Assembly (NCBI GenBank): GCA_964016885.1
Contig: OZ024742.1
Coordinates: forward strand, 261,702,001-261,766,000
Origin: Eledone cirrhosa
Taxonomy: Eukaryota
DNA length: 64,000 bases
Direction: 5' to 3'
Shown piece by piece: positions 9,690-53,494 of the stretch. The stretch's first letter is position 1; every line of letters begins with the position of its first letter. Position numbers and translations under genes: made by a program. The notes below the pieces were generated by a model. That model searched no databases, was not told where the DNA came from, and saw nothing but the letters and a program-made list of their open reading frames with translations.

Positions 9690-10109
9690 TGTAGGAGGTG
9701 AGTTTTATTGTAGTACAATAAAGCAATGCAGATATCGGATAAGAAGCACTCTACAGTTTGTGGGACTGGAGTATGCATAATATAAGATCAAAAGATGGTT
9801 AAAGGAGTTCAATATATTTTATTATGCGCATTTCAAAAACAAACATCATCAAACAATAATATTTGTGTTTTCATCAGATAAAACAGGAGAACATGATATG
9901 AAGGCTAAAAAAACACTTGTTGATAGTGCAGTTTTAATATATGTTGATATGTTGATTTAAAACTGCACCATCAACAAGTGTTTTTTTAGCCTTCATATCA
10001 TGTTCTCCTGTTTTATCTGATGAAAACACAAATATTATTGTTTGATGATGTTTGTTTTTGAAATGCGCATAATAAAATATATTGAACTCCTTTAACCATC
10101 TTTTGATCT

Positions 10110-10117
<8 letters not shown>
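9690..10117. mobile_element. Non-coding fold-back element with 161-bp inverted arms, one hammerhead per arm
   Basis: Arms 9777-9937 and 9957-10117 are reverse complements with 1 mismatch and a 19-nt loop. Bounded by (TA)n tracts. Confidence 0.85.
10011..10077 (+). ncRNA. Type-I hammerhead ribozyme (mirror copy on - strand at 9817-9883)
   Basis: ttttat-CTGATGA-[long G-U-rich stem II]-GAAA-tgcgca-TA-ataaaa. Stem I is ttttat/ataaaa, stem III is palindromic, cleavage triplet AUA. Confidence 0.8.
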
Positions 10118-17589: not shown

Positions 17590-20500
17590 ATGTATAAAAT
17601 CAATACAATATTATTACCTCATTACCAGAGGTTTCCCGAATGAGGCGAATACGAAATAAACGACTTCATTCGTTCGTCAGACGAGGCAATATAAAACATG
17701 GGCAAATACTTAGAAAAACACATCAAGAAAATCAAAAAAATATATAGATAAATGAAATAGAAATTGAAATATATAAAAATCTATCAAGAAAAATAGTTAG
17801 GTGTGTGTATGTGTATGTATATACGCTCACAGATGTGCATATATGTATATGTGCACATGTAAATGTATAGTTAGAAAGTGTGCGTAATTATAAAAATTTA
17901 GGGCAAGTGTATCTATATGTCTGTATTATACAGACAGAAATGGTTACATCGTAAATATGAGAATATAAAGTCGCGCGCATAAAAACGCCTGGACACTCGT
18001 ACACTTAGATGCGGAAAGAAAGGAGGTAAAGAGTGTATAATATTTAAAAGAAAAGTATCGGTCTCGATATATTTGTAAAAATATAGTAACGATAAATTAG
18101 AAAGAAAAGATAGAAAGAAAAAATTAAAGAAAACAAAAAAAAAAGGGGGGGGGTACATACATACACAGACACGCGTGTCTCACAAAAGAAATGTAAAAAT
18201 AATTATGCTTATATACACACGCGCAATTACACTTCCATACGTTCGATACGTACATACACACACACACACACACACACTTATACTAGCGCATATAAACCTA
18301 TTTGCATGCCCACGTATGAAACTGAGTAAGTAACAAAAGAGGGAAGGGAGGGGGGGGGGGGAGAAGAAAAAAGGAACAAAAACATAAAAACGAAATGTCA
18401 AAAACACGGATATAAAGACAACTACACATACGCATAATATATACATACACACACAAACACCTATACACACACACATACATACGCGCACATATATATATAT
18501 ATATATATATACACATACATACACGCACGCGCGCGCACATACGTAGTCACTCGTGTACATATATAAAAAGTATACACACATTAAGGCGTTCAGCCATATT
18601 GAAATGTGGATAAATAAGTACAAGTATAAAATTGTAAGATAGGCTGCGCAAAAATAAAATAAAAATAAAAATGAAAAATATATCTGGATTGAAAAACACA
18701 AAAGACAAGTGTAATCAGTTAGTGGAAGAAAAGGGAAGTAAAAGAAGGGGAAGTAAAAAATAGAAAATAGGAAGTGGATCGGAGAATAAAGGGGGGGGGG
18801 GGGGGGTGAAGTAAAAATAAATAAAAGTGAAAATAAATGAAATTATTGACAAGGATAAGAATGAAAGTAAGTCAGAAAGGGTAATTAAAAAGAGAATAAT
18901 AAGAGATTATGGAGGATAAGTATCTGAAAGTGTGTTAAGTTTATATGAGCTGGAAAGCAAGTGTGATTTCATGTGTGGGCAACTGGTAAAAATTTCCGTC
19001 TTTGTGTTCAGGCAGGTCTTTGGTGATTTAAGATTTTGCAATATCCAAAATTTTTCATTTATGCAGAGCGTGCATTTTCTTGTTCCTCTAGCATATTTTT
19101 TAGATTGGTTCAAAATTGACCAATCTAGTTTATATTGGATGCCTTGGTCTTTCAAATCCCAGATTCTGCTAGCCAGAGCTGTTGTAAATCTTTTTTCTGG
19201 ATGTCGAAAGGATGCGACATGTGAGTAATAACGCGTTTTGAATCTGTCTTGCGTCATACCCACATATCGTTCACTGGTGACTGGATGGTTGTTGCTGATG
19301 GTTGTCACATTAGCCGCATATACAATGGCTTTGGTGTTGCATTTACCTTGTAATGGGCATTCACTTTTGATTCTACAGGAGCAAGTTTGATTTTCTCTAG
19401 GTGAAATTTTGTTGAGGATATAGGACTTAATAGGGGGACCGCAGGAATAGCTAATTTTAACACAGTTTCTGTTAAAGATCTTATAGTATCTATGTGTTCT
19501 AGGGAAATGTTTATCTAGGAGTTCTAGGAATTTTTTGCCTACATTAGTTTTAACTGCTAGAGAGTAGGGGGGTGTGTGAACCAGATTATTTTTCTTTTCC
19601 TATTTTTATGTTTAATAGAGTTAGTGTAGTTAGGTATGTATTTAATCGGTTCGCTAAAGCCGCTATTTTGGAGGGCTATATTATAGTAGGGGGATGCCTT
19701 ATTGAAAATAGCTTCTGATGAAGAGAGGGTGGAGATCCTACAGCTAATATTAGGGATAAGGTTTTTAAAAACTATAGGTGGATGGCAAGATCCTTTATTT
19801 ATATATTTTAAGTTTTCATTAGGTTTATGGTATGGTTTATAAGAAGCAGTAGGCAAATCTAAGTTTATATCTAGGAAATCTACGTTGGACACGTTAGTAT
19901 CAATAGTAATTTTAAGATTAAAACTAGCAAAGGTTTTTATTAAGTCTTTCCTTAATCTATCTAAGTTATGGCCTATGGTGGTATGGGAAAGTATTAGACC
20001 ATCATCGCGATAAAGCCCAAAAATATGGTTAGGAAATTTTTCTTTAAGTGTATGTAAGAGGAATAGGCCGACCAGATCACAAACCTCGGCACTGTCATAA
20101 GAGCCCATTGAGACATCGAATGGGTTCTCTGGGTTAGATATTTTTACCCAAGTGTCATTATCATTAAAAAGAAGAGTGTTCCTAGCATGCAAGATTACAT
20201 CCTCTTCAATATCGGAGATATTAGTGAACCCTCTAGCGAAATTTAAAGCTTTCACTAAAAGGGTCTGAGTAATAGATGGGTAGAAATCTACGATATCAAA
20301 TTGGGTGAATCTAGAACTGATTTTGTTTTTAATATTATTAAACCAATGTACTACGGAAGAGCTATTTATCCATTGGAGTAATTTAGACTTACTTCTAATA
20401 TGTGTATTTAATTTATTTAAATTTTTTTTACTGGCAAGACCAATATCAGTCTTAGCAGGGTTGATTAATCTACAACTAGGGTGATTAATAAAGTCGGGTT

Positions 20501-21152
20501 TATGATCTTTAAGGGTTTAGCAAGTTTTTCTGTCCTATTATCTATTTCTAAAGAAACAGCTAATTCTTTAGCTTCCTTATTTATATTATGGTACGTATTT
20601 ATATTAGCTATTTGGTATTTAGAGGTGATATTATCTATTAATAGTTGGTCGTGTAAATTATTATTAACTTCATATAGGTTTTTAGTTTTATCTGAGAAGA
20701 TGAACTTATTATTAGAAGATTTGAAAGTAGAAATATCATTAGATAATTTGGATTGAAAGGGGTTAGAGTACTTACAAAAATTGATGTTGTTGATAAGGTT
20801 AACTAGGTCTAATTCAAAGGCGGTCATATCTTTTACTCTTTGCGGGTATTTGTGAGTTTTGATGTCAAAATGTTCCGTAGAATCCGTGTTAAATTGACCA
20901 TCGAGAATCAAAGCTTTCCATCTCATTCTTTTAACAACCTTCTCTACTTTGTCTATCAGTATTTTCGTGTAGAGAGTATTAGAAGGTGTTGGGATATTCT
21001 TTACAGAGTAGTCCAAAGGGTATTTGTCCATATTCGGTATTGGTTTAAAATCCTATGACTGGAGAGTGCTCGACTTAAAAAGGGCTGGAAGGTGCCAATC
21101 TCATAACGATGTAGAATATGCTACGATCATATATGTAGAATATGCTACGATA
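17585..21152 (-). mobile_element. Near-full-length Penelope-like element (Naiad-like), two frameshifts
   Basis: ORF pieces 21031-20465, about 20500-19557 and about 19570-18907 carry YSVKNIP, FSDKT, FDIVDFYPSI, FDVSMGSYDSAEVCDLVG, GLYRDDGL, WF.PPYS, CSCRIKSECPL and GIY-YIG (AIVY...YVGMT..FKTRY..H...CTLC..EK). About 1.3-kb 3' UTR, (TA)n on both sides. Confidence 0.88.
17617..17686 (-). ncRNA. Complete type-I hammerhead ribozyme at the 3' end of the Naiad-like element
   Basis: Minus strand reads cctcgt-CTGACGA-a-cgaatga...tcattcg-g-GAAA-cc tct gg-TA-atgagg. All three stems pair and the cleavage triplet is GUA. Confidence 0.85.
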
Positions 21153-34643: not shown

Positions 34644-35843
34644 CAGGGTGCGGACGATATTTGTTCGCAAGATTACTGTCTAGGAAAAAATAACACAGTA
34701 GTTTTATTTTTTAAGATATATTTATCAAACTTGGGTCAGTTTGTCTTCATGACTTGTTCTTTCGATCTCACTCGATAAACCCGCCATTGGCTTTGATGAC
34801 GGCCTCGGAACCGGCTACAGGCCTTCGTCACTGTCCCCCAACTTAGGCCCCTAAAGGCACTTGTGATCCTGGCCTTCAGATCGTCTTTCGTATTGCAGCT
34901 AGATCTGTTGGTGTCTCGTTCCACTGCGCCCCACACAAAGAAGTCGAGGGGGTTGCAGTCAGACGAGCTGGGAGGCCAGATGTCATGTGAAGTGTGGTCG
35001 ACGAAGTTCTCTGACAGCCAGGCTTGGGTCTTTCAGCTGGTATGGCAGGGCGCTGAGTCTTGCTGCCACACATACGGCCCACCTGCAGCTACCTGGTCGA
35101 TCCAGGGCTTTACTACCTCACTCAGAACACGGATGTAGCCATCGGTGTTCAGCTTGAGGCCTTCGGGGAAGAAGTGAGGTGGCGTGACGTCACCTTGACT
35201 GCTGATGACACCTAAGACCAATGTTGTAGCTGGAAACTGTGTCTGCATAACTCTGTGCACGTCTTTGGATGAGACAGCGAGCCACCTGTTCTGGGAGTTG
35301 ATCTTCAGGTCTTGGCAGAAGTTTTTCTCATCGGAGAAAAACTACAGCATGTCTGGCTCCAGTGGGTGTTTCAACTTGTTGATCAGCTTCTTTGCATGCT
35401 TCAGTCGCTTTTCTTACATCGCCTTTTACAGAAATTGTCCTTTCCTCATCTTGTATGAAACGTAGCGAATGTCTTCATGTACCACCAGCCTAATGAGCTT
35501 TTCATCCACACCTTTCTCCCTTGCAATGGCACGCATCTCTGATGTTGCTTCGTAGTCGAATCCTGAATCTTCCAATTCCTTTCTGACCTTTTCCACCATT
35601 CTCCTGCTGATGCTGAGAAAGTCTGAAATTTCCTTATTTGTCCTCCTGGCGCGGATTCCAAGAAGAACTCCGTGTCTCTTCCACAAATTTGGAGGTTCAA
35701 AATTATTCATAATCAATTATTCTGAAAATAAATAATGGAAATATAGTCACTGTTTTTATGAAGACAAGAGTGACAATGGAAGTAAATAAAATTTACATAA
35801 AATTAGCAGTTGAAAATTGCGAACAAATATCATCCACACTCTG
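34644..35843 (-). mobile_element. Tc1/mariner DD37D (maT) transposon, defective
   Basis: TIRs cagggtgcggacgatatttgttcgcaa / ttgcgaacaaatatcatccacactctg with TA flanks. FSDEK and WQQDSAPCH...NPLD motifs, 37 residues between the last two Asp. Confidence 0.88.
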
Positions 35844-35847
35844 TATA

Positions 35848-35935
<88 letters not shown>

Positions 35936-36057: not shown

Positions 36058-36162
36058 CTAATTTCTTGGAATAGGCATCTAATCGGTAGGCTGCTTGCTC
36101 CAGATTACTGACGCTCTCTTCTATTTGGTCAATTTGATCAAGGTATGGTTGTAAACTGCGGT
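36058..36162 (-). CDS. BLOC1S2: BLOC-1 subunit 2, coding exon 4
   Basis: Acceptor ctccacAG, donor GTgagt. Encodes [35 protein letters not shown]. Confidence 0.95.
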
Positions 36163-37586: not shown

Positions 37587-37706
37587 ATTTGTCATCCAGT
37601 TCAAGCATTGCTCGACTGACATTCATTGCAATGTGTTTCATTTCTGAATATTTGTTGATGGTCACTTGATTCATCTGCTCTAAAAGTTTGTACTCCTCAG
37701 CTGTCC
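37587..37706 (-). CDS. BLOC1S2: BLOC-1 subunit 2, coding exon 3
   Basis: Acceptor tgtatgtAG, donor GTaggt. Encodes GTAEEYKLLEQMNQVTINKYSEMKHIAMNVSRAMLELDDK. Confidence 0.95.
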
Positions 37707-37989
37707 CTACATACAATAGATACATATTTATAATTACACATGCAATTTGGATTCATATAAATATACATATAAAAAAGTATATTCATTTATGTAAAATTAC
37801 ATTATACATAGGTGGGAGGTGGGGGTCATTCTTTCATAAATATACTTCTTGACAAAAGGTAAACAATAAACACTAGTGAAATATCAAAGACATGTTTGTA
37901 CTGCCCAACACTCAGTAGTGGTATATTAAAGACGTTTGTATTGCTCAGTATTGTCTAGTTTAAATCTTTTATTTATCAGTTATTTATAA

Positions 37990-38019
<30 letters not shown>

Positions 38020-38020
<1 letters not shown>

Positions 38021-38426
38021 TTAAAAGTTAAACAAGGTTCAATGAATAAATCAAAGAATGAGTTTTACAATAGATTGGAAGCACTCAACAGTATTAGTTT
38101 TCCAGAGTTATTAATATTAATTCAAAATATTAACAAAATAGATATTCTTGTGATCAAGTATATTTTATTATACATATTTCAGAGGTACTGAGTTAAGTTC
38201 AACAGTACGTTCTCATCAGATAAAATAAGATGACATACCCTGACATAGTAGATGGTTAAGATACTACCATGGCTGAATCTTAACCATCTACTATGTCAGG
38301 GTATGTCATGCATCATCTTATTTTATCTGATGAGGACGTACTGTTGAACTTAACTCAGTACCTCTGAAATATGTATAATAAAATATACTTGATCACAAGA
38401 ATATCCATTTTGTTAATATTTTGAAT
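38020..38426. mobile_element. Second non-coding fold-back element with a hammerhead in each arm
   Basis: Arms 38120-38262 and 38277-38426 are inverted (2 substitutions, one short indel) with a 14-nt loop. Bounded by (TA)n. Confidence 0.85.
38321..38383 (+). ncRNA. Type-I hammerhead ribozyme (mirror copy on - strand at about 38163-38226)
   Basis: ttttat-CTGATGA-ggac-gtactg...cagtac-ctct-GAAA-tatgta-TA-ataaaa. Confidence 0.8.
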
Positions 38427-38449
38427 ATATATATATATATATATATATA

Positions 38450-40347
38450 TCATCATCATTTTACATACACTTTTCCCTGCTTGCAAGGTTAGGACAGGTT
38501 CTATTCAGCACAGCATCTCTCCACTTGTCATGTTCCTTCGTCATCTCCACCGTGAGCTTCAGCGATCTGAGGTTTGCTCTCACCACCTCCTCTTAAACAC
38601 AGTTTCTCTCTCAACACATCCATGCTCGGTCGTTCATGTACACTGACATTGCACATCCAACAGAGCATTCTTGCCTCATTTCTCTCCAGCCGTCGCATAT
38701 CCTCTGCAGTTGCTGCCCATGGCTCACTACCATGCAGCATCGTGCACCTGACACAGGCATCATATAACCAGCCTTTCGTACGCAGGGAGAAACCCTTCTT
38801 CATCAGCAGAGGAAGCAGCTCCCTAAACATCTCCCAACCCGTCCTTCTTCTAGATACTATGGCCTCAGAACACCCCCCTCCAATGCTAATATGATCACCT
38901 AGGTACCGGAAGCTATCAACCACTTCTATAGAACCTACCTGCATTTGAAAAATATGTCTACCAATGTGACTTCTACTGTCAAATTTCCCTGTACATCTAC
39001 TGCGTGCGTATTTTTCCCTACCTGTTAGGTTGCCTGCTATCCCATTACATCTCTTGTGTACCCAAGATCTGCATTGTGTACATTTTATAGAATTTATGCC
39101 AGTTCCTTTTCTGCATATCAAACATGGCCATTTCCCTGACGGAATCAGAGTTTTGCCCTCTTTTCTACTCAACACTTTTGTCTTAGCTAGGTTCACTCTC
39201 ATTCCTCTTGCTTCCAACTGCTGTTTCCATAGCCAGAATTTATTCTCTAGCTCCTCTACTGTTTCTGCTATAAGAACCACATCGTCAGCATAGAGAAGTT
39301 CCCATGGGTAGCCCGTCTTAAACTCCTCTGTTATGGCTTGCAGGACTATAATAAACAAGAGCAGGCTGAGGACCGAACCTTGATGTACTCCTACTTGTAT
39401 CTGGAATTCCTCACTAAACTCCATTCCTACCCTGATTTTACTGACAGCACCTCTGTACAAAGCTTGCACTGTCCTCACAAGCCATTCCTCAACACCTAGT
39501 TTCCTTAGGGACCACCAGATGACAGATCGGGGTACCCTCAAAGGCCTTCTCTAGGTCAACAAAAGCTAAGTACAGTGACTTATTCTTCTCTTGTACTCGT
39601 CTCACTAAGAGGGCATCTGTTGTACTTTTCCCAGGCACAAAACCAAACTGCATCTCATAGTTGGACCCTTTTTCTAATTAGTTGCGCTAATATCCTTTCT
39701 GCCACTTTCTTAACCTGATCCATCAGTTTTATGCCCCTATAATTGCTCCTCTCCAGAGCATCCCCTTTACCTTTGTAGCAATTTATGAGAATACTGCTGC
39801 ACCAGTCTTTGGGTATGACACTGCCATATATAGCCTGATTGATGATGCGTGCAACCAGTTTAGTGCCTACGTCCCCTGATGCCTTCAGCATCTCAGCAAC
39901 TATCCCCGACGGTCCAGCGGCCTTACCATTCTTCATTTCCTTAATCGCCTCTTGGACCCTATATTCGTCTATCTTAATAGCTGGTCCCTCTGTCCGATCT
40001 GCTGGGGGTAATTTCTCTCTCTCCCATTCGTTCTCCACATTCATCAGTCCCTCATAATGACATTTCCAGGCCTCCTTTTTCTGATCATTCGTGACACTGA
40101 GTACACCGGCATCATTTCGGACACACATCTCCAACAACATCCTGATTTGCACTGACACACTGCCTTGCAATGTGGAACACCGCACGTCTCTGTTCTTCCC
40201 GTCGCAGAACAATGGCAAACCTCCTACTCTCAGGGGGTTCTTGCACATGGCCACACCGGCCACCCCACTACCATGCGCAGCCCTAACATGATTAGTGTTA
40301 TTGCTGTTGACGCAGTTGTTGTTGTGTGATTACTCGATGACGGTCGG
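38450..40347 (-). mobile_element. RTE LINE with the endonuclease domain deleted and a rearranged 5' end
   Basis: RT motifs (GVHQGSVLS, LLYADD), PHD finger, (cat)n tail at 38450. A 5' segment homologous to 44888-44965 is joined directly to sequence homologous to about 46120. Confidence 0.88.
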
Positions 40348-41096
40348 GGATGATCAACAATGTATTTGCTTCCAGCGAACCCTACAAGTCACTCCAGACA
40401 TGATTCATCAGCTGGGGTTAGAGAAAGATCTTGAGGGTCACCAGGGCTGTGTGAATTGTTTAGAATGGAATGATAAAGGAACGTTATTGGCAAGTGGATC
40501 TGATGATGTTCAAATTATTGTGTGGAATCCTTTCTGTCATAAGTGCTTAACCACAATCAGAACAGGACATTAAGGAAATATATTTTCTTTGAAGTTTCTT
40601 CCCAACTCTAATGATTTAATAATTGTGAGTGGAGCCACTGACTGTAAGATCCTAGTCCATGATGTAAGCATATAGGAAACCACACATGTATTTGGCTGTC
40701 ATGCAGGTCGTGTGAAGTGGCTAGCTACTGCTCCAAATGTTCCGTTTATGTTTTGGAGTGCTGCGGAAGATGGCACAATCATGCAATTTGATCTGCGAAC
40801 TCCAATTATCTGTGATAGCACACCCCAGAATGTTTTAATCAATCTTAATGCACATATGGGACTTCATGCTGAAGCAAAGTGCATTGCTATCAATCCTTTA
40901 CGGCCAGATGAGATGGCAGTTGGAGCTAATGATCCTTATGTTCAAGTGTACGACAGAAGAATGTTGTCATGCAAAAGTATCAAATTTCCTACTGATAATG
41001 GATCACGGTTTCAATGGGATAGCCCTGTTACTTCACCCAGCTTAAGGGAAGAGGACTACAACTTACATTCGAGCTGTCTACAATACTTTGTTGCAG
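40348..41096 (+). pseudogene. WDTC1: WDTC1 (adipose/DCAF9) N-terminal WD40 fragment, intron-free, two nonsense codons
   Basis: LGLEKDLEGHQGCVNCLEWNDKGTLLASGSDD...TGH*GNIFSLKFLP...FWSAAEDGTIMQFDLR...EAKCIAINP...QYFVAG. Single frame with TAA at 40571 and TAG at 40673. Homology ends at GCAG|GTAGAA. Confidence 0.85.
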
Positions 41097-41419
41097 GTAG
41101 AAATCTGTTTGTTTTAATTGTTCTTCTAGGTCATTTGAGGACACTCTGTCTCTGATGCAGTCTACGTACAGTGCGGAGTTCCCTATGCTCCAAGGCTGTG
41201 TTAAGTTCTACATAGCAGGTAATACAACTACAATTCATGCCTGCAATTGTCTAATGGTATTACTTCAACTCATTGCACAACTCTCATCCTATATCTACTA
41301 TCTTCAGATTTTTAATTGGTTTAAGAAGTATATTATTTTCATTTCAAACTTACAATTTTTAGAATTGCAATCGCAATGATATGAGTTTTATAATTAAGTT
41401 CTTTACTAGTACTCCTGTA

Positions 41420-42542
41420 AATAATTATATATTATTTATATTTGGGCACCATCTCTTTGAAATAGCCTCTTTTGGAATGTACATAGTAATCCCACAGCAT
41501 CTTCCATGCCTCAAAAACACACTAGTCTTTTTCTGAAGGCTGTTCAATATTGCCAACAGTTCCATTTGAATTTCATTTATGGTCTCACAGTGGCTTCCTT
41601 TCAGCTTCAATTTCATTTTGGAAAGCACAACAAAGTCACAGGTGAGTAAGGAGGGTGTTGAATGACTGCCATTTGTTCTTCGTCAAAAACTGCATTGTCT
41701 TGAAGAGGTGCAACATCTGTCAAGGGCCTCAGAACATTGAAGTAAAAATTGGAATTTACCATCCTGCTGGGAAGAACAAATTCTAAGTGAGCATACTTTC
41801 CATTGCACTCCAGACCAGCCTCATTTTCTTTGTTCTTAGTGACTGCAATGACTGATGTTTTGTCCCAGGATCATAGCCATAAACCTAACTCATCACCCAT
41901 GATGATTCTAGTGATGAAACTTGGCTCATTATTTATCTTTCTTAATAAGCTAAAAGCACACATCAAGATGCCACTGCTTTGGATTGAATGTTAAGAACTG
42001 GGACCACAAATTTTACAGGGATACAATGCATGTTCAGGTTTTCCCTGAAAATCTTCTAGTAGACTCCATAATTGATTTCAATCTTGTGAGAGAGCTGATG
42101 AATTATTTGGCAACAATCCTCATAGATGAGTTCATGAATTTTTTCCCCCAATTTCCAGCATTTTAGTTGTGATTGGTTGCCCTGAACGCTCATCTTTTTA
42201 AACTGCCATTTAACCAACCTTTAAATGCATGTGCCTCCCAAACATCTGTGTTGATTATAAAGAATGTTTACCAAAAGACCGGCAACATATTTCAAGGGTC
42301 TTGGTAGCAAATGTACTGGGCTTAATGCAACATTTTTTGTCAGCCATTGTAAAAATTGCAGTTGTTCTAATACAACATTACAAAACTTTGGTTAATAATT
42401 GAACATGGGTTGATAGCATGAAGCTGATCTGTTGACTGACTCAGTAGGCTGATTACTAATGATCGTCTGCTGCACACATATTTCTACTGAACAGTATAAT
42501 CACAGCATGCGCAGTCTGGAAACTTTCTCATAACACCTCATA
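41420..42542 (-). mobile_element. Decayed mariner-like transposon
   Basis: KMKLKLKG...ETINEIQ C-terminal remnant and a terminus actttctcataacacctcata. Confidence 0.5.
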
Positions 42543-42775
42543 CTAGTTATAAATATGTGCTTTGATTCAAATAGATAAATAGAATACATAAATAGAACAG
42601 TTATATCACTTTTGAACATAGCATTGAGAAATAATTCTTTTTAACCATATCAGGTAGTTCATGTTTATAATCAGATGTAAAATATCTTGTAACAGATTTT
42701 AGACCAGTAATTTTTCACTTGTAATTTCACATCAAAAACAAAAATAACTATGATTTTGAAATAATTTACAGCTCT

Positions 42776-43022
42776 TTAACCCTTTTGATACCAAACTACC
42801 TGAACATGCTCCCAGTTCTACAATACAAAACTGTTCATTTTAAAGTATTTATATGCATCTATAAACCTTCCGTCGTAATTTTATATAAGAACATTTGTTA
42901 AGTTCTGTTCCAAACAAAGTTAGTTATATTATTAACCCCTTCTGAATTCTTGATTATTTTCAAAATTATCTAAAAATCATAGACAATATTTTTCATTAGA
43001 AATAAAGTAATGAAAGGGTTAA
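42776..43022. mobile_element. TTAA-flanked MITE (family of 4651-4909)
   Basis: ttaa-cccttttgatacc ... gtaatgaaaggg-ttaa. Confidence 0.75.
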
Positions 43023-44366
43023 GAGTTGTAATATATAAACTACTTTTGAATTTAAATCCTATTACAAATTCCATTTCACCTTTAAACCAATTAAATGTCT
43101 CTATGTTGTTGAAATATAATTAATGTCTATCCACCTGAATATTATTAGCTTATTTGCTAAATTATTTAAATTCCTCGTGGCTGTAATAATACACCACTTA
43201 TTCTGCCTCTGCAATTACATTTTCACCCTATCTCTGCTTCCATCATTACATATCTACTTCAATAAGTTATCTATACCTCTTTCTAATAAATATCAGCTGT
43301 TATCATAAATACAATATCTCATTTTTTTTTTCATTTATTCATATAACTTTTAACATCCTGTATTGATTTTGCGGAATGTTTGTAGTATCTTTACTATTTG
43401 ATTGATCTTTGTGAAAATGTGCAGTGTTAGAGTAAATACTTTAATATTTAATGTGATGCAGTCATAGTGCTGTTTTGTACTTTTCAAGAATGTCTTGCTA
43501 ATGTGACTTCATGCAGTACAGGATGTTAAAAGTTAAATAATTTATCCACACATCTCTCTCTCTTTAATAAATTTCAGCTGTTATTATAAATATCATATCT
43601 CATATTTTATCATTTATTCATGTCATACTGGTGCCACAATAAAAAGCACCCAGTCCACCCTGCAAAGTAGTAATGCCGGTGCTACATAAAACACAGCTAT
43701 AAAGTGGTTGGCATTAGGAAGGACATCCAACTGTTTTTGCCTTATAACATCACAGCCTGTCTAACTCACGCAAGCATGGAAAATGGACATTAAACTGTAA
43801 TGATAATGGTTATGTGTGGGGCTAATCCTCATCAGTACACTGTATCACTTAAGATGTGATAACTTAGTAAAAGAATCCTGACAGTCAACAGAGCTAAGTG
43901 ACTGTAAAATTGTTGGTAAAGCAGCTGTCATACTGTAGAGGTTGACAGTCCAGTCAAATCAGATGGACTTAAACTAATTTGATAGGGAAATGAATGCAAG
44001 CTCAGTGTGATGTAAATGATAACTTGATTCTTTATATGTATGTATGAATTCCTAACTCCTGATGGAGTTGTATAGGAACTGTAGTGACAAAATATGGAAT
44101 GTACAATCAAGATGTCTCCCAGATACATTTTGGAACATGACAATCTGTCCAACCAATGCTGTGGACTTAAATGATAATGATTATGATATATTTGAAAAAT
44201 AGAGATTGTATTTATAGATGGTGATTTGACTTAGAGGTTTTGTGGTGTAATAAGAGTGGAATTTTTCAGCGTTTTGTTTTTATTTTAATGTGTTTGTGTG
44301 TGTTAACTTACACAATGTATTTTTAATATATACATATATATATATATATATATATGTCCGACGCTG

Positions 44367-47300
44367 TATATCATAGAACAGACAAGGGGCGTACGGAGGC
44401 TCTGTAAGCCGCAATGTAGGCAGCTCGTCTAGGAGAGCTACCACTCCGAATAGAGTGCGGAGTAGAGAAGTCCCCTAAGTCCAGTAAGACAACTTCCCTA
44501 GTGCTGATGGCACAAATAAAAACATCCAGTCCATGCTGTAAAATGGAGGAGTAGATAGGGCCCCTGAGTCAGGTTAGACGACCTCTCTAGTGCTGGTAGC
44601 ACGAATAAAAGCACCGAGTCCATGCTGTAAAATGGAGGGGTAGATAGGGCCCCTGAGTCCAGTAAGACGACCTCTCTAGTGCTGGTGGCATGAATAAAAG
44701 CACCCAGTCCGTGCTGTAAAATGGAGGAGTGGTTAGGGCCCCTGAGTCCAGTAAGACAACCTCTCTAATGCTGGTGGTACGAATAAAAGCACCCAGTCCA
44801 TGCTGTAAAATGGTGCTGGTGTTAGGAAGGGCATCCAACCAGTATAATAAAAAGCCAAAATTATGAGCACAACAAATAAGAATTGCAACAACTGCGTCAA
44901 CAGCAATAACACTAACCATGTTAGGGCTGCGCATGGTAGTGGGGTGGCCATGTGTGAGAACCCCACGACCGTCATCGAGCAATCGCACAACAGGAAAAAG
45001 AACGGGATGTCGCATCTCAGAGTTGCCACACTAACAGGTAGATCTGGTGAGATAGCGGAAATGCTGGAGAGAAGGCATGTGGATGTGTGCTGTGTGCAAG
45101 AGGTGCGATGGAGAGGTGCCTCTGCAAGACTAATCGCAGGCAAACATCTTAGTTATAAGCTTTTCTGGGTGGATAATGATGATGGGTTAGGTGGGGTAGG
45201 CATATTACTGGCTGAGAGATGGATCAATAAGACGATAGAGGTAGTTAGAGTTGGTAATAGAATAATTAAGCTTAGATTAGTTGTAGGCAAGAGACTGCTG
45301 ACAATCATCTCTGCCTATGCTCCCCAGGCAGGCCTAGGTAAAGAAGAGAAAGACAGCTTTTACGAGCAACTTTTACAGACAGCCTCAATGACAGAGGACG
45401 GAGACATCGTTATGCTAGCAGGGGACTTCAATGGACATGTTGGACAGCTCCAGGATGGATACACTGGGGTACATGGTGGGCACGGTTACGCCTCAAGAAA
45501 TGAAGAAGGAGTGAGGCTTCTTGAATTTTGTGATCCAAATGCACTAACCATTTGCAACACTAATTTCCAGAAGCCTTCCAACCACCTAATAACCTACAAA
45601 TCAGGCGAGCACATAAGCCAGATTGACTTCCTGCTAGTTAGACAGCGAGACAGACAGATGGTGTCAAATACTAAGGCTTACCCTGGGGAAGAATGTACCC
45701 CACAGCATAGGTTAGTCGTTAGTAACATCTCAGTAAGCAAGAGAAAGAATGAGACATACAGTAAGGTGTGGAAAAGAAAGGTCTGGAAGCTAAAAGACAT
45801 TTCATTAAAATATAAATTTAGCAAAGCCCTTCAAGATGCTTACAACGAAAAAGAAGACGATTTAGAGTTGTATGACATAGATGATAACTGGAATTTCTTG
45901 TGTGACAACTTACTGCAGGCTACTGAAGAAACTTGTGGTTGGAGCAGAGCTTCCACCAGACAGAGAGTGACCTGGTAGTGGAACAGCACGGTAGATAGGG
46001 CCATTAGAGACAAAAGACTGGCATGGAAAGCTTGGAAAAGTGGTGGGAGTAGAGATGGATACACAGCCGCTAAGAGAGAAGCTAGACGTCAGGTGTACTT
46101 AGCACGCAGGGAGGCTGAGAGTAGGAGGTTTGCCAATGTTCTGCGACGGGCAGATCAGAGATGTGCGGTGTTCCGCATTGCAAGGCAGTGTGTCAGTGCA
46201 AATCAGGATGTTGTTGGAAATAAGTGTGTCCGGAATGATGCCGGTGTACTTAGTGTCATGAATGATCAAAAGAAGAAGGCCTGGAAATGTCATTATGAGA
46301 GACTGATGAATGTAGAGAACGAATGGGACAGAGAGGAATTACCCCCAGTAGACTCGACAGAGGGACCAGCTATTGAGATTGATGAATATAGGGTACAAGA
46401 GGTAATTAAGGAAATGAAGAATGGTAAGGCTGCTGGGCTGTCGGAGATAGTTGCTGAGATGCTGAAGGCTTCAGGAGAAGTAGGCACTAAACTAGTTGCA
46501 CGCATCATTAATCAAGCTATATATGGTGGTGTCATACCCAAAGACTGGTACAGCAGTATTCTCATAAATTTTTACAAAGGTAAAGGGGATGCTCTAGAGA
46601 GGAGCAATTATAGGGGCATAAAGCTGATGGATCAGGTTATGAAAGTGGCAGAGAGAATATTAGCGTAACTGATTAGAGAAAGAGTCAATTTAGATGAGAT
46701 GCAGTTTGGTTTTGTGCCTGGGAAAAGTACAACAGATTCCCTCTTCATAGTGAGGCAACTACAAGAGAGGTTCTTAGAGAAGAAGAAGCCACTATACTTA
46801 GATTTTGTTGACCTAGAGAAGGCCTTTGATAGGGTACTCCGATCTATCATCTAGTGGTCCCTAAGGAAACTAGGGATAGAGGAATGGCTTGTGAGGATAG
46901 TGCAAGCTTTGTACAGGGGTGCTGTCAGTAAAGTGAGAATAGGAATGGAGTTTAGTGAGGAATTCCAGATACAAGTAGGTGTACATCAAGGTTCTGTCCT
47001 CAGCCCGCTCTTGTTCATTATAGTCCTCCAAGCCATAACGGAGGAGTTTAAGACTGGATGCCCATGGGAACTTCTTTATGCTGATGATCTGGTTCTTATA
47101 GCAGAATCAGTAAAGGAGCTAGAATATAAATTCTGGCTATGGAAACAGCAGTTGGAATCAAGAGGCCTGAGAGTGAACATAGCTAAAACAAAGGCGTTGA
47201 TAAGTAGAAGAGAGGACAATACTCTGATTCCGTCAGGGAAATGGCCATGTTCGATATGTAGGAAAGGAACTGGCATAAATTCCATAAAATGTACGCAATG

Positions 47301-48066
47301 CAGATCTTGGGTACACAAGAGATGTAGCGGGATAGTAGGCAAACTAACAGGTAGGGAAAACTATGTATGCAGTAGATGTACAGGGAAATTTGGCAGTAGT
47401 AATCGATGTGATAGACTCATTTTTCCAATGCAGGTGGGTTCTATAGAAGTGGTTGATAGCTTCCGGTACCTAGGTGATCAGATTAGCATGGGAGTGAGGT
47501 GTTCCGAGGCCATAGTATCTAGAATAAGGAAGGGTTGGAAGAAGTTTAGGGAGCTGCTCCCTCTGTTGACAAAGAAGGGTTTCTCCCTGCGTACGAAAGG
47601 ACGGTTATATGATGCCTGTGTGAAATGTGCGATGTTGCATGGCAGTGAGCCATGGGCAGCAACTGCAGAGGATATGCGACGGCTGGAGAGAAATTAAGCA
47701 AGTATGCTCCGTTGGATGTGCAATGTCAATGTGCAAGAACGGCCAAGCATAGACGAGTTGAGAAAGAAACTGGGTATAAGAGGGATAAGTTGTGGTGTGC
47801 AGGAGAGAAGGCTGAGATGGTATGGACATGTGATGCGCATGGAGGATGATCGATGGGTGAAGAAGTGCCAGGAAGTCCCAGTGGAGAGAAGACGCAGTAG
47901 AGGTAGACCACGAAAAACATGGGCAGAGGTGGTGAGAGCAGACCTCAGATCGCTGAAACTCACGGAGTAGATGACGAAGGACTGTGATGGGTGGAGAGAT
48001 GCTGTGCTGAATAGGACCCGTCCAACACTTGCAAGCAGTGAAAAGCAGACGTAAAATGATGATGAT
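44367..48066 (+). mobile_element. Full-length RTE LINE (APE - RT - PHD finger), inactivated by nonsense mutations
   Basis: ORF pieces starting at 44863, 46093, 46891 and 47704 share one frame. Motifs CCVQE, SAYAP, GDFNGHVG, SQIDF, QHRLV, DLEKAFD, YADD, RRLRWYGH. 5' UTR has 89-bp monomers and the 3' end has a (gat)n tail. Confidence 0.93.
44470..44812 (+). repeat. 89-bp tandem monomers in the RTE 5' UTR (about 4 copies)
   Basis: ctgagtccagtaagac.acctctctagtgctgg recurs at about 44475, 44564, 44653 and 44742. Confidence 0.9.
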
Positions 48067-48069
48067 CAT

Positions 48070-48553
48070 GGTGACCGCACCAGCCACCCCACTAATGTGC
48101 GCAGCTCTAACAAGGTTGGTGTTATTGCTGTTTACGCAGTTGTTGCAATTCTCATTTGTTGTGCTCATAGTGTTTGGCAGTAGTATATATACTGGTTGGA
48201 TGCCCTTTCTAACACCAGCACCACTTTACAGCATGGACTGGGTGCTTTTATTCGTGCCACCAGCACTAGAGAGGTTGTCTTACTGGACTCAGGGGCCCTC
48301 TCTACCCCTCCATTTTACAGCATGGACTAGGTGCTTTTATTCGTGCCACCAGCACTGGAGAGGTCGTCTTACTGAACTCAGGGGCCCTATCCACCCCTCC
48401 ATTTTTACAGCATGGACTGGGTGCTTTTATTCGTGCCGCCAGCACTAGGGAAGTTGTCTTACTGGACTTAGGGGACTTCTCTACCCCGCACCAATTTATT
48501 CAGAGTGGTAGCTCTCCTAGACGGCTTGCCTACATTGTCTGTTCTATGATATA
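48070..48553 (-). repeat. Inverted copy of the RTE 5' UTR attached to the RTE tail
   Basis: Diverged reverse complement of about 44367-44950, including the outermost tatcatagaacagacaa motif. Confidence 0.9.
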
Positions 48554-48959
48554 TTCACGAGGGAGTGGTTGCATACAGCGTCAAGCATGTATACCGAATG
48601 TGGTGGTGGTGGTGGGGCGGGCGGGTGAGAACTACAATGGCTTATACATACAAATTTATATGCAAACACTTTCAATGGCGTATACAAACAAATTTTATAT
48701 ACAAACACATACAAATCACATATATATATATATACAAATCTCATACATATATACATATACAAATCTCATACATATATACATATACAAATCTCATCATATA
48801 TACATATACAAATCTCATACATATATATATATGTATATATATATATACAACTGAAAATTTTGGAGACATAAATATAAACACTTATCTTGTACAATGGCTT
48901 ATACATATAAATTTTATATGCAAGCACATTCAACAGTTTATATCACATACAAATCTCAT

Positions 48960-48992
<33 letters not shown>

Positions 48993-49827
48993 CAGGGTGA
49001 GGACGATATTTGTTCGCAATTTTCAACTGCTAATTTTATGCAAATTTTTTTTACTTCCGTTGTCACTCTTGTCTTCATAAAAACAGTGACTATATTTCCA
49101 TTATTTATTTTCAGAATAATTGATTATGAATAATTTTGAATCTCCAAATTTGTGGAAGAGACACAGAGTTCTTCTTGGAATCCGCGCCGGGAGGACAAAT
49201 AAAGAAATTTCAGACTTTCTCAGCATCAGTAGGAGAATGGTGTCTTATCCAAAGACGTGCCCAGAGTCATGCAGACAAAGTTTCCAGCGACAACATTGGT
49301 CTTAGGTGTCGTCAGCAGTCAAGGTGACGTCATGCCACCTCACTTCTTCCCTGAGGGCCTCAAGCTGAACACCGATGGCTACATCCGTGTTCTGAGCGAG
49401 GTAGTAAAGCCCTGGATCAACCAGGTAGCTTCAGGTAGGCCGTAAGTGTGGCAGCAAGACTCAGCGCCCTGCCATACCAGCCGAAAGACCCAAGCCTGGC
49501 TGTCAGAGAACTTCGTCAACCACACTTCACATGACATCTGGCCTCCCAGCTCGCCTGACTGCAACCTCCTCGACTTCTTTGTGTGGGGCGCAGTGGAATG
49601 AGACACCAACAGATCTAGCTGCAATACGAAAGACAATCTGAAGGCCAGGATCACAAGTGCCTTTAGGAGCCTAAGTCGGAGGACAGTGACGAAGGCCTGT
49701 AGCCGGTTCCGAGGCCGCCTTGAGGACGTCATCAAAGCCAATGGCGGGTTTATCGAGTGAGATCGAAAGAACAAGTCATGAAGACAAATAGACAATAATC
49801 TTGCGAACAAATATCGTCCGCACCCTG
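48993..49827 (+). mobile_element. maT (DD37D) transposon, internally deleted copy
   Basis: Same TIRs and highly similar body to 34644-35843, opposite orientation, TA flanks. Confidence 0.9.
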
Positions 49828-49907
49828 TATATGTATATATATATATACAACCGAAAAATTTTGGAGACATAAATATAAACACTTATTTTATACGAAGTTT
49901 TCATAAC

Positions 49908-49968
<61 letters not shown>

Positions 49969-50024
49969 CTTTGATCTTAACTTAAAGTCTGTCTGAGAAG
50001 CATGTGTATATATATATATATATC

Positions 50025-52960
50025 ATCATCAACATCATCATTTTTACATTCATTGTTCTGTGCTTGCATGGATTGGATAAATTCTTTTCAGCACAGCATC
50101 TCTCCACTTGTCGCATTCCTTCATCATCTCCTCTGTGAGTCTCAAAGATTTCAGATCAGCACTTACCACCTCTGCCCAGGTCTTCCTTGGTCTACCTCTA
50201 GGACGGCTTCTTTCCACTGGCACTCCCTGACACTTCTTGACCCAGCAATCATCATCCATGTAAATCATATGTCCATACCAACACAGTCTTCTCTCTTGCA
50301 CACCACTTCAGATTCCTTGTAAACCCAGTTTTATCCAAGCCTTGTAAACCCAGTTCATCCAAGCCCTGGCTTTCACTCACACTTACATTGCACATCCAAC
50401 GAAGCATGGTTGCTTCATTTCTCTCCAGCCTACACATGTCCTCTGCAGTCACTGCCCATGTTTCACTACCATGCAGCATTGCACACGTGTCATACAGCCA
50501 TCCTTTTTTACATAGGGAGAAACCTTTTGTTATCAACAGTGAGAGTAGATCTCTAAATTTCTCCAATCCCATCCTTATTCTAGCTAGTATTCTCTTGGAG
50601 CACCCTCCTCCACGACTGATTAAGTCACCTAGATAGCAGAAGCTATCAATCACTTCCATGGATCCCTCCTGTGATTGGAAAAGGTTTCTATCCTTGATGC
50701 TCTTCTCCTTGATTTCTCCTGTGCATTTTCTACATACAAAGTCTTTCCTTCCTGTTAGTCTACTTGTTATCCCATTACATCTCTTGTGTACCGAAGATTT
50801 ACATTGTGTATATCTTTTACAGTTTATGCCTACTCCTTTTCTACAAATTGAGCAGGGCCACTCTCCTGAAAGAATCAGGCTCTTTTCTTCTTTCCTATTT
50901 ACTAGCACTTTAGTTTTGGCTAAGTTTACTCTCAGCCCTTTGGATTCCAAATTCAGTTTCCATAGTCAGGACTTATTCTCTAGTTCTCTTATCGATTCAA
51001 CTATAAGGACCAGATCACTGGCACAGAGAAGTTTCCATGGACAGCCAGTCTTAAACTCCACTGTTATGGCCTGGAGAACTATGATGAATGGTAGTGGGCT
51101 ACAAACCGAACCCTGATGAACTCTTACTTGTACCTTGAATTTCTCACAAAACTCACTTCCTACTCTCGCTTTACTGACAGCTCCTCTGTACATGGCTTGC
51201 ACTGCTCTCACAAACCATTCTTTTACACTTAATTTTTGTAAGGACCACCAGATAACAGATCCAAGTACACTGTCAAAGGCCTTTTCTAAATTAACAAAAG
51301 CTAAATATAGCAGTTTATTCTTGGTTAGGAACTTCTCTTGTTGTCTCACTAAGAAGAGGGCATCTGTAGTACTTTTCCCAAGCATAAAACCGAACTGCAT
51401 CTCGTCTAATTTGACTATCCCTAATTAGCTGTGCTAGAACTCTTTCCGTCACTTCCATAACTTGGTCCATTAGTTTTATTCTTCTGTAGTTGCTCCTGTC
51501 TAGAGCATCACCTTTACAATTTATGATTGTACTGCTGCACCAGTCACTGTGTATGATTCTGTCCTGTATTACCTGACTGACTATGCAGGTTACTAGTTGG
51601 CTCCTACTTCTTCCGATGCTTTTAGCATCTTGGTAACTATCTTTGATGGTTCTACAGCTTTACCATTCTTCATCTCCTGGATTGCTTCTTTGATCTTATA
51701 ACTCAAATTCAATAGCTGGTCCCTCAGTTGGGGGTAGTCTCTTTTCCTCCCATTCATTCTCTACATTCATCAGCCTTTCATAACATTTCCAGGCCTCTTT
51801 CTTTTGAGCATCAGTAGTACTAAGTGCACCAGTGTCATTTCTAACACATTTTCCCCAACAAAAACTTGATCCACACAGACACACTGCCTTGCTATACAGA
51901 AAACCTCATGTCTCAAGACATTGGCAAGCTTCTCCCTTTGCTTCCTAGTACTGGTCTCTGCTACCCCCATTTTTCAAGTCATTCCAAGCCTGTTTTTTGG
52001 TTTTAATGGCTCTAACCACTGTGTTGTTCCACCACCAGGTCACCCTCTCTCTCATCAGCAGTTCACAATATGTTATGTAAGAATTTCCAATTGTCTTCTG
52101 TTATATGTACCTAACTCATCTTTCCTCTCATAAAATGAATCTTGTAAGGCCTATCTAAACCTATATTTAACAGAAAAGCCCTTTAGCTTCCAAACCTTCT
52201 GTTTCCATATTTTCCTGCATATCTTGTGTTTATTCTGATGTCACTAATAACTAACTTTGTTGGGCAGCATATTTTTTCCTGGGGAAGACCTTAGCATTTA
52301 TGACTGTCCATCTATCTTGTCTTACAAGAAATCAATCTGGCTTGTGTTTTTGCCTGATTCATATATGATCAGGTGGCTGAATGGTTTCCTAACATTTGTG
52401 TTGCAAATAGTTTCTTCATTTGCATCCCAGAATTTCAGGAACCTCACTCCCTCTTCATTTCTTGAATCACAGCAATAGCCGCTGTGAACTCCAGTGAATC
52501 CATCCTGGAACTGTCCAACATGTCCATTGAAGTTGCCTACCAAGATGATGAGGTCTTTTTCATCATTGTTGTCTATAAAAATTCCTCATAGATCCGTTCC
52601 TTTTGTTCTTTACTCAGTCCTGCCTGTGGTGCATAGGTAGATATAATTGTCACCATTCTATTTCCTTCAGTTATTCTAAGCTTGATAATTTGTCACTACT
52701 CTAACTACCTTTATCATTTTATCTATCCCTTTCTCAGCTAGAAGAATGCCTATACCCCCTACCCCATCATCATCAATTCCTACCTACCAAGGTTTGTATC
52801 TATGCTGCTTGCCTGTGAATTGTCTTGCTGAGGCACCCCCCACCCCATCGCCTACATCTCACCTCTTGTAAACAAAATTCATCCACTTCTCTCCTCTCTA
52901 ACAGTTCCATAATTTCACTTGGCTTACCTTTCAGGGTGCCAACATTGAGAGTGACAGCCC
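50025..52960 (-). mobile_element. Decayed near-full-length RTE LINE
   Basis: TLNVGTLKG, GNFNGHVG, MQFGFM, VHQGS and GRPRKTW fragments with a (cat)n tail. Confidence 0.88.
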
Positions 52961-53377
52961 AGAATTGTGTAACTTCACAGTGGTTAGTCCCCTGAGTAAT
53001 AGTTCTTTGTACAATCGAAACAATATCAATATAATATCGAAATAATATCAATACAACGATAGAATATTGAAGCAACATTGATACAATATATAAATACTAG
53101 CAGTCACCCGGCCTTCACTCTGGTTTGTACTGTGCTCAAATCTATTCATAAGGCACCTATTGGCATCTATTGTAAAATAAAAGATGCTAAAAGTTATTTA
53201 AATATTGCATAACATATTTTTAAAAAACTTATTTAGAATATCTCTCTCTCACACACACCATCGTCTCTCCAGCAATTTTAACTGAACTATACAATAGCTT
53301 AGATATAATAGATGACCACATTCACAGACAACAGAAACAGCAAAGTTAATTTTAACCATCAAAGTATAATACTGTAC

Positions 53378-53494
53378 CTTCAAGTTCACCTCTTAAATAG
53401 ATTGCAGTTTTGCTCATTGTTTCCTGGCAAAGGCGCACCACATCAGCTGGTGGTTCATCTTTGGATTCTGACAGGTCATCTACTTTGTTACTAT
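53378..53494 (-). CDS. BLOC1S2: BLOC-1 subunit 2, coding exon 2
   Basis: Acceptor ttatttcAG, donor GTacag. Encodes DSNKVDDLSESKDEPPADVVRLCQETMSKTAIYLRGELE, 117 nt, phase 1-1. Confidence 0.92.

Follow-up and report, generated by a model that had tools for sequence, protein, structure and literature searches.

The stretch between 38020 and 38426 of the window, by which we mean the whole 64,000 nucleotides of DNA that were analysed, raises the question of what a palindrome with a hammerhead ribozyme motif in each arm is, how such a structure is made, and whether it matters to BLOC1S2, in an intron of which it lies.

Twin hammerheads in a palindromic element

Hammerheads were called by sequence pattern, and the motifs have the CUGANGA, GAAA and UH elements of a type I core, with stems I and II paired. 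Positions 38114–38432 constitute an inverted repeat, within which 38120–38425 folds into a 142 bp hairpin (142 predicted pairs) holding two outward-facing hammerheads of type I, whose cores (+38327 and −38219) both read CTGATGA...GAAA-TATGTA-TA. The candidate target microsatellite, (TA)n, is present on either side of the element (37994–38020 on the left and 38425–38450 on the right, neither with an assigned strand), and the left arm is longer than the right by ~95 nt. The first-pass annotation had described a twin-hammerhead palindrome with a longer left arm and (TA)n flanks, and the inverted repeat, the cores and the flanks were all recovered. The plus-strand hammerhead (38319–38385) has stem I at 38319–38326/38378–38385, core positions 38327–38333, stem II at 38334–38365, GAAA at 38366–38369 and a short near-palindromic helix III, with a predicted cut after 38377. 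Its minus-strand partner (38161–38227), which is in the sense of the BLOC1S2 pre-mRNA, has core position C3 at 38219 and a predicted cut after 38169; stem II has lost its second pair through a G-to-A substitution at 38211, and 7 nt are deleted upstream of stem I. The arms differ by two substitutions and one 7-nt gap over the ~150 nt before the TA end, a small divergence that appears as for a young insertion.

Both arms align wholly to the leader of a longer natural copy elsewhere in the genome (L221), a partial tandem whose 5' pLTR has a TATA box at −31, an Inr-like A at +1, a hammerhead cut after +115 and an ATG at +329. The tailed arm (38020–38262, minus strand) is a copy of this leader from +15 to ~+266, the putative second reverse transcriptase (RT) start site, and matches the 5' pLTR-ORF leader of L221 at 239 of 260 positions (92%). 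The tailless arm (38263–38426, plus strand) runs from exactly +1, the Inr-like A, to the putative first start site at ~+165, and is identical to the L221 leader at 162 of 170 positions. The arms meet with no overlap and no extra letter, and the window copy has no extra G. The additional ~95 nt of the left arm (38021–38113, minus strand) constitute the stretch of leader between the two start sites and, on this alignment, are the 'tail' of Penelope elements; in longer copies this stretch adjoins the ATG of the ORF on its upstream side, such that the tail is 5' UTR here.

A Penelope-like retrotransposon with Hydra-clade motifs

We refer to the family of 38020–38426 as family 2 and to that of 9690–10117 as family 1. 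The latter element had been noted as having the same architecture, and indeed it is the same product from a sister family, with a plus-strand arm from +1 and a minus-strand arm from +11 that carries the tail. Longer genomic copies extend upstream of the hammerhead, through the 3' UTR and into an ORF, which in family 1 is an 821-codon open frame (L051); the partial tandem L055 shows that family 1 is laid out as family 2, and a TATA box at −31 is absent from family 1. In family 2 the ends of the window copy run on into ORF pieces ~50% identical to L051 (L099, L100, L221 and others), and no intact family-2 ORF was found in the 19 long copies examined or the 150 places scored. Both arms are the 5' leader of a Penelope-like element (PLE) encoding an RT and a GIY-YIG endonuclease with motifs of the Hydra clade.

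The ORFs contain QxDIxSYY, YRDD and xxYxC...YxG motifs, with GIY-YIG at the C-terminus. Direct scans of the PLE ORFs against Pfam and PDB sequences gave no match, a homolog search returned 18 proteins at 29–38%, and the Atlas neighbours of the ORFs carry HTH_animal, GIY-YIG and RVT_1. A single ORF with RT and C-terminal GIY-YIG is linked to the repeat, as in EN+ PLEs, together with a sense-orientation hammerhead in the pLTR, partial tandems (L221, L055) and a one-sided tail, and inverted 5'-truncated partners are present in L100–L117. Of the Hydra-clade motifs, DKT stands in place of DKG (SDKTN in both families), and the RW motif is found as RLRWT and RVRWC, the K of the Hydra RWK not being present. 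The CxCX5C linker is CNCRIKNKC in L051 and CNCRNRSNC in L108, the CxxC before E is CNLCLNE and CNLCTME respectively, and both have CxH after N as N-x8-CLH. Stretches of (TA)4 or longer continue past both arms in 44 of 51 twins and past one arm in the other 7. Family 2 spans ~4.4 kb in L099, with a 3' UTR of ~2 kb, and thus exceeds the Hydra-clade length of under 3 kb, which in PMC8557442 is given as holding 'generally' and does not define the clade.

Two other classifications were considered and set aside. The arms are asymmetric and are the leader of an RT-coding element, which speaks against a MITE or DNA transposon, and they form an inverted pair with one sense hammerhead per strand, not the tandem direct repeats of a non-LTR retrozyme.

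The window contains a third, longer Penelope-like copy on the minus strand between (TA)n runs (17590–21130), in which 18973–21034 has 34–40% identity to the family-1 ORF. In its hammerhead at −17680, helix III consists of three pairs closed by a 3-nt loop, and this motif may therefore work as a monomer. Elsewhere, at G000:C7:78454364-78463084, a related 738-codon open frame occurs three times in tandem with 4,011-nt spacing, a full tandem array of another family.

Conservation of the hammerhead

An Rfam search returned no hammerhead family at E<=5, the matches being (TA)n artefacts. The shared core pattern nonetheless has 34,042 strict matches in the 3.0-Gb genome against none for a reversed control, and is therefore not a product of chance. 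Among 149 distinct motifs from the loci examined, stem II pairs 1–3 and 5–7 are paired in 92–97%, pair 4 is a C-pyrimidine mismatch in 137, and pairs 7 and 8 of stem I, which the filter did not impose, are paired in 94% and 88% respectively. Between families, stem II pairs exchange among G-C, A-U and C-G, related copies not being independent in this comparison of the 149 motifs. The earlier proposal of selection on ribozyme structure thus gains from the covariation of stem II across these 149 hammerheads, and its companion claim, that conservation is confined to the core and stem I, gives way, since compensatory changes between the families have preserved the pairing of stem II. As read from the motif alignment, selection on the ribozyme includes stem II and acted on active Penelope-like lineages.

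Helix III is weak, with a self-duplex of −4.2 kcal/mol by folding for family 2, and the minimum-energy fold of the isolated motif is not a hammerhead. By analogy, the short near-palindromic helix III is of the dimer-dependent type described in PMC4209133. Twins also occur in at least two further hammerhead families that share the core, stem I and the C-pyrimidine mismatch (e.g. L110 1573–1958; L002, L008).

Copy number, start sites and the 5' stop

The earlier suggestion of a family-level mechanism, with a genome-wide count of palindromic copies, is borne out: the palindrome is an insertion product of a Penelope-like retrotransposon, and there are thousands of further twins. One exact 22-mer of family 2 has 3,975 matches genome-wide, and counting exact 15-mers on both sides with 30–300 nt between them gives lower bounds of at least 1,287 short twins for family 2 with near subfamilies and at least 3,207 for family 1; the window copy itself escapes this count owing to one change. 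Many other copies stand alone, are long, or have a partner that consists of the tail only, and 27 of the first 50 family-1 twins span 160–176 nt, where 168 is expected.

Tails are one-sided. Among 51 family-2 twins (the window copy and the first 50 listed), 48 have one tail, three have none detected and none has two; by a motif test, 15 of 16 family-1 twins have one. The remaining family-1 flag for tails on both arms (L226) has one arm that ends 12 nt past the core with no TA end, and L159, an apparent two-tail twin, proved an artefact of the tail library. Of the four start sites, three contain ATAT-type sequence with microhomology to (TA)n.

At the other end, 37 of the 51 family-2 twins were well resolved by the reference copies and 14 were dropped. 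Of their 74 arms, 21 end at 0 to +3 (13 of these at +1), 42 end inside the leader and 11 end upstream, where several cases reflect an alignment that spilled over the junction. In family 1, 20 of 32 arms end at 0/+1 and one upstream. A position-ordered sample of 60 arms gives 8 ends at −1 to +3, 14 inside and 38 upstream, and long arms are therefore a second large class.

Genome-wide, a break from the template at +1 occurs in 232 family-2 and 2,652 family-1 copies, compared with ~77 junctions for a control stop at +7 (61 among the first 100 of 126 matches, the other 39 having been dropped as read-through point mutants). For the hammerhead cut there are 21 matches, of which 13 are read-through variants and at most 8 are junctions that stop there, and cut RNA is thus rarely the template. 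The patterns for +1, +7 and the cut site pick different subfamily variants, and the denominators of these comparisons differ accordingly. The base before +1 is G in 45/100 family-2 and 56/100 family-1 copies against 8/61 at the +7 control (hand counts of the first 100 listed; Fisher p 2.6e-5 and 3e-8). Copying of a cap is known from work on L1 to leave an additional G where the 5' end is complete, and we infer from these junctions that +1 would be the transcription start and the cap the source of the G. Many family-1 C-ATATG joints fit a templated −1 base of the partner arm, such that the extra letter can in some cases derive from the partner arm instead of the cap.

Comparison of the arms within twins is informative as to their origin. 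In 15 of the 37 resolved twins, including the window copy, it is the arm without the tail that extends further 5', each arm thus holding sequence that the other lacks; in 10 the tailed arm also reaches further 5'. The closest relative of an arm is its partner in 12 of 51 twins, the two being tied with other copies in 11 and beaten in 28, so that arm-to-arm identity gives no support to a single template molecule for both arms. Short and long arms show some segregation, in that partners pass +1 in 0/7 versus 7/17 cases, but this is not significant (p 0.065). Two twins (L156, L005) contain short direct repeats of leader +20 to +85, as if the RT had jumped back on its template.

Proposed mechanism

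We consider it likely that the element consists of head-to-head leader copies placed in (TA)n by two rounds of target-primed reverse transcription on uncleaved, capped sense RNA. The element's endonuclease would open a (TA)n run, and each DNA end would prime at one of the two start sites, both of them A/U-rich and situated between the hammerhead and the ATG. The resulting cDNAs would then extend across the hammerhead and run off at the cap, in many cases with an added C, after which their ends would be joined with trimming, microhomology or filler; in longer insertions the same two start sites would be used on the downstream pLTR copy. Retroviral-type strand transfer is not supported as the main source of these long copies. 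We also lean, with less assurance, towards a dimeric RT that uses two fixed leader sites to start, each serving one target end, with both cDNAs running off the cap in the manner of a doubled retroviral strong-stop DNA.

The published explanation for such inversions, self-priming in which one cDNA, or an antisense template from the same element, folds back on itself (proposed for rotifer Penelope elements in PMC3846280), would account for the frequency of head-to-head junctions with short palindromes, and the 10 twins whose tailed arm reaches further 5' are what a fold-back could give. It is difficult to reconcile with the 15 twins of the opposite kind, in which neither arm copies the other, and arms that end at a sense-strand Inr and carry an additional G point to capped sense RNA. 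A single fold-back is, on its arm ends, excluded for the window copy, and we regard the process as very unlikely for the class. A further candidate is a template of hammerhead-cut or circular RNA monomers, retrozyme-like, with +1 as a strong pause or recombination hot spot instead of an RNA end; circular templates have been put forward for PLEs in PMC4209133. Both arms cross the cut site, as a ligated circle would also allow, and a few tandem short repeats do occur (L156). A circle, however, offers neither an end at +1 nor a cap from which the additional G could come, hardly any arms (8 at most) terminate at the cut, and the twins are inverted and not tandem, so that we think this origin very unlikely.

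If two-sided priming on capped RNA is correct, head-to-head pLTRs and the one-sided tail are explained without antisense self-priming, the twins show in vivo that the hammerhead does not cut its template, and the transcription start of the element has been mapped from DNA alone. Each twin would also silence its own hammerhead in either host direction, seeding the genome with thousands of 150-bp hairpins.

The host gene BLOC1S2

The coding exons of BLOC1S2 (PF10046) lie on the minus strand at 53494–53378, 37706–37587 and 36162–36058, and the host intron is 37707–53377 (15.7 kb); its designation as intron 2 presumes a single coding exon upstream of 53494. 'Exon 3' (37587–37706), downstream of the element, matches PF10046 with E 6.7e-8, and contigs from transcript runs X8 and X1 join 37587 to 36162, the start of 'exon 4' (36058–36162, the next coding exon), across GT-AG ends. 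The X1 contig continues behind 37708 into the upstream BLOC1S2 exon and matches the end of 'exon 2' (53378–53494), X1 being another organism code that may be without the insertion. No contigs from runs X1 and X2 aligned to the element, and those from runs X8 and X5 that did are pieces of many family copies, none of them spanning it.

Relative to the acceptor at 37706/37707, the edge of the hairpin is 413 nt and that of the element 313 nt away, in agreement with the ~400 nt given earlier, and the expected ~140-bp hairpin with a hammerhead in the pre-mRNA is matched by the 142 predicted pairs and by the sense orientation of the minus-strand motif. When growing minus-strand transcripts are folded, the hammerhead core is predicted to be paired from the outset (mean unpaired probability <=0.046), and forcing the hammerhead fold within the hairpin transcript costs 93 kcal/mol. 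The idea that the hairpin masks self-cleavage of the host transcript is consequently upheld as far as predicted masking goes, but this follows automatically from head-to-head geometry in any twin and in either direction, and so shows no host-side design. In the BLOC1S2 pre-mRNA the antisense arm would be made before the hammerhead and is predicted to trap it, and the insertion is therefore likely to be near neutral.

Retention of this copy as a regulatory hairpin acting on BLOC1S2, as a masked ribozyme switch or an ADAR or Dicer substrate, would be in keeping with the position of the hairpin 413 nt from the acceptor and with the predicted coverage of the core as soon as it is made. Such a role is nevertheless highly improbable given that the genome has thousands of like twins, that the arms are nearly identical, as for a young insertion, that the sense hammerhead carries a stem II mismatch, that much longer inverted repeats share the intron, and that spliced BLOC1S2 transcripts are present. 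The inverted repeats in question measure 370–590 nt per piece and could give more double-stranded RNA than the element hairpin. As far as BLOC1S2 is concerned, we most likely have here a commonplace insertion into an intron, probably a by-product and not a regulatory device.

Several other features are found around it. Two LINE copies with endonuclease and RT frames, which we take to be RTE-like, lie in opposite orientation in the same intron (38449–40233 and 44851–48066) and are 86–93% complementary over ~1.6 kb in pieces. An inverted transposase-like pair, presumably Tc1/mariner-like (34800–35878 and 48958–49717), is 94–95% complementary and flanks two BLOC1S2 exons. On the plus strand, opposite to the gene within its intron, two long WD40-coding frames without the expected introns (40292–41152) resemble WDTC1 and are perhaps a processed pseudogene.

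Comparison with known systems

In L1 twin priming both target ends prime cDNA, as proposed here, but L1 arms cover different parts of the RNA, whereas the arms here overlap and so form a palindrome. This class of element is already known, as are the twin arrangement and the tail on one arm, and what these copies add is the mechanism. Our literature search found no twin-priming, strong-stop or transcription-start reading of Penelope inversions, most subscription papers and older Penelope papers lying outside its reach.

The closest clade is Hydra, which in PMC8557442 includes Hydra-1_Obim from octopus, with its hammerhead listed in the supplement. Likenesses are the C-terminal GIY-YIG, DKT, RW, the CxCX5C linker, CxxC before E and CxH after N, as well as the hammerhead in the pLTR, (TA)n targets and inverted 5'-truncated copies. 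RW is followed by T or C here and by K in Hydra, family 2 is longer at ~4.4 kb with its ~2 kb 3' UTR than the 1.1–3.0 kb of the listed Hydra elements, the Hydra-1_oBim hammerhead as listed differs from ours, and tens of thousands of hammerhead copies set this genome apart. The Cercyon PLEs of Schistosoma, as presented in PMC4209133, have dual min-hammerheads on opposite strands 100–700 bp apart, an arrangement that is only noted there and ascribed to truncated PLEs; the type I fold and the weak palindromic helix III are shared, and low activity is reported for such weak-helix-III, dimer-dependent hammerheads. The hammerheads here differ in having no extra base between 9 and 10.1 and in keeping the C-pyrimidine mismatch at stem II pair 4, and the ends, tails and junction letters have here been mapped.

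Non-LTR retrozymes, as set out in 10.64898/2026.07.22.740005, are likewise short, non-coding and PLE-derived with a type I hammerhead, but are tandem direct repeats, whereas the twins are inverted and show no sign of moving again; tandem hammerheads are reported there as excluded from introns. Penelope elements of the rotifer Adineta vaga have head-to-head pLTRs with a tail on one arm, and a TATA and TCACT Inr-like motif in the pLTR, the tail being 31 there and ~95 nt here, and antisense self-priming is favoured in PMC3846280. For Poseidon of Anolis carolinensis, PMC11167929 describes a tail that is defined in vitro by a pair of internal RT start sites close to the pLTR-ORF junction, extension of both strands, a predicted dimer and dispensable hammerhead cleavage. 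Two start sites, an uncleaved RNA template and an A/T-rich target are thus common to both, with the difference that the sites here are in the 5' UTR, ~95 nt apart and with A/T microhomology to (TA)n, while Poseidon PAc starts inside the ORF without homology. How the inverted structures of PLEs form is named as an open question in PMC8557442, and families 1 and 2 offer a genome-scale, testable answer, in which each insertion has a single tail, the 5' stop is fixed and capped, and the template is uncut. This answer is in line with what the only in vitro system shows and speaks against antisense self-priming as published.
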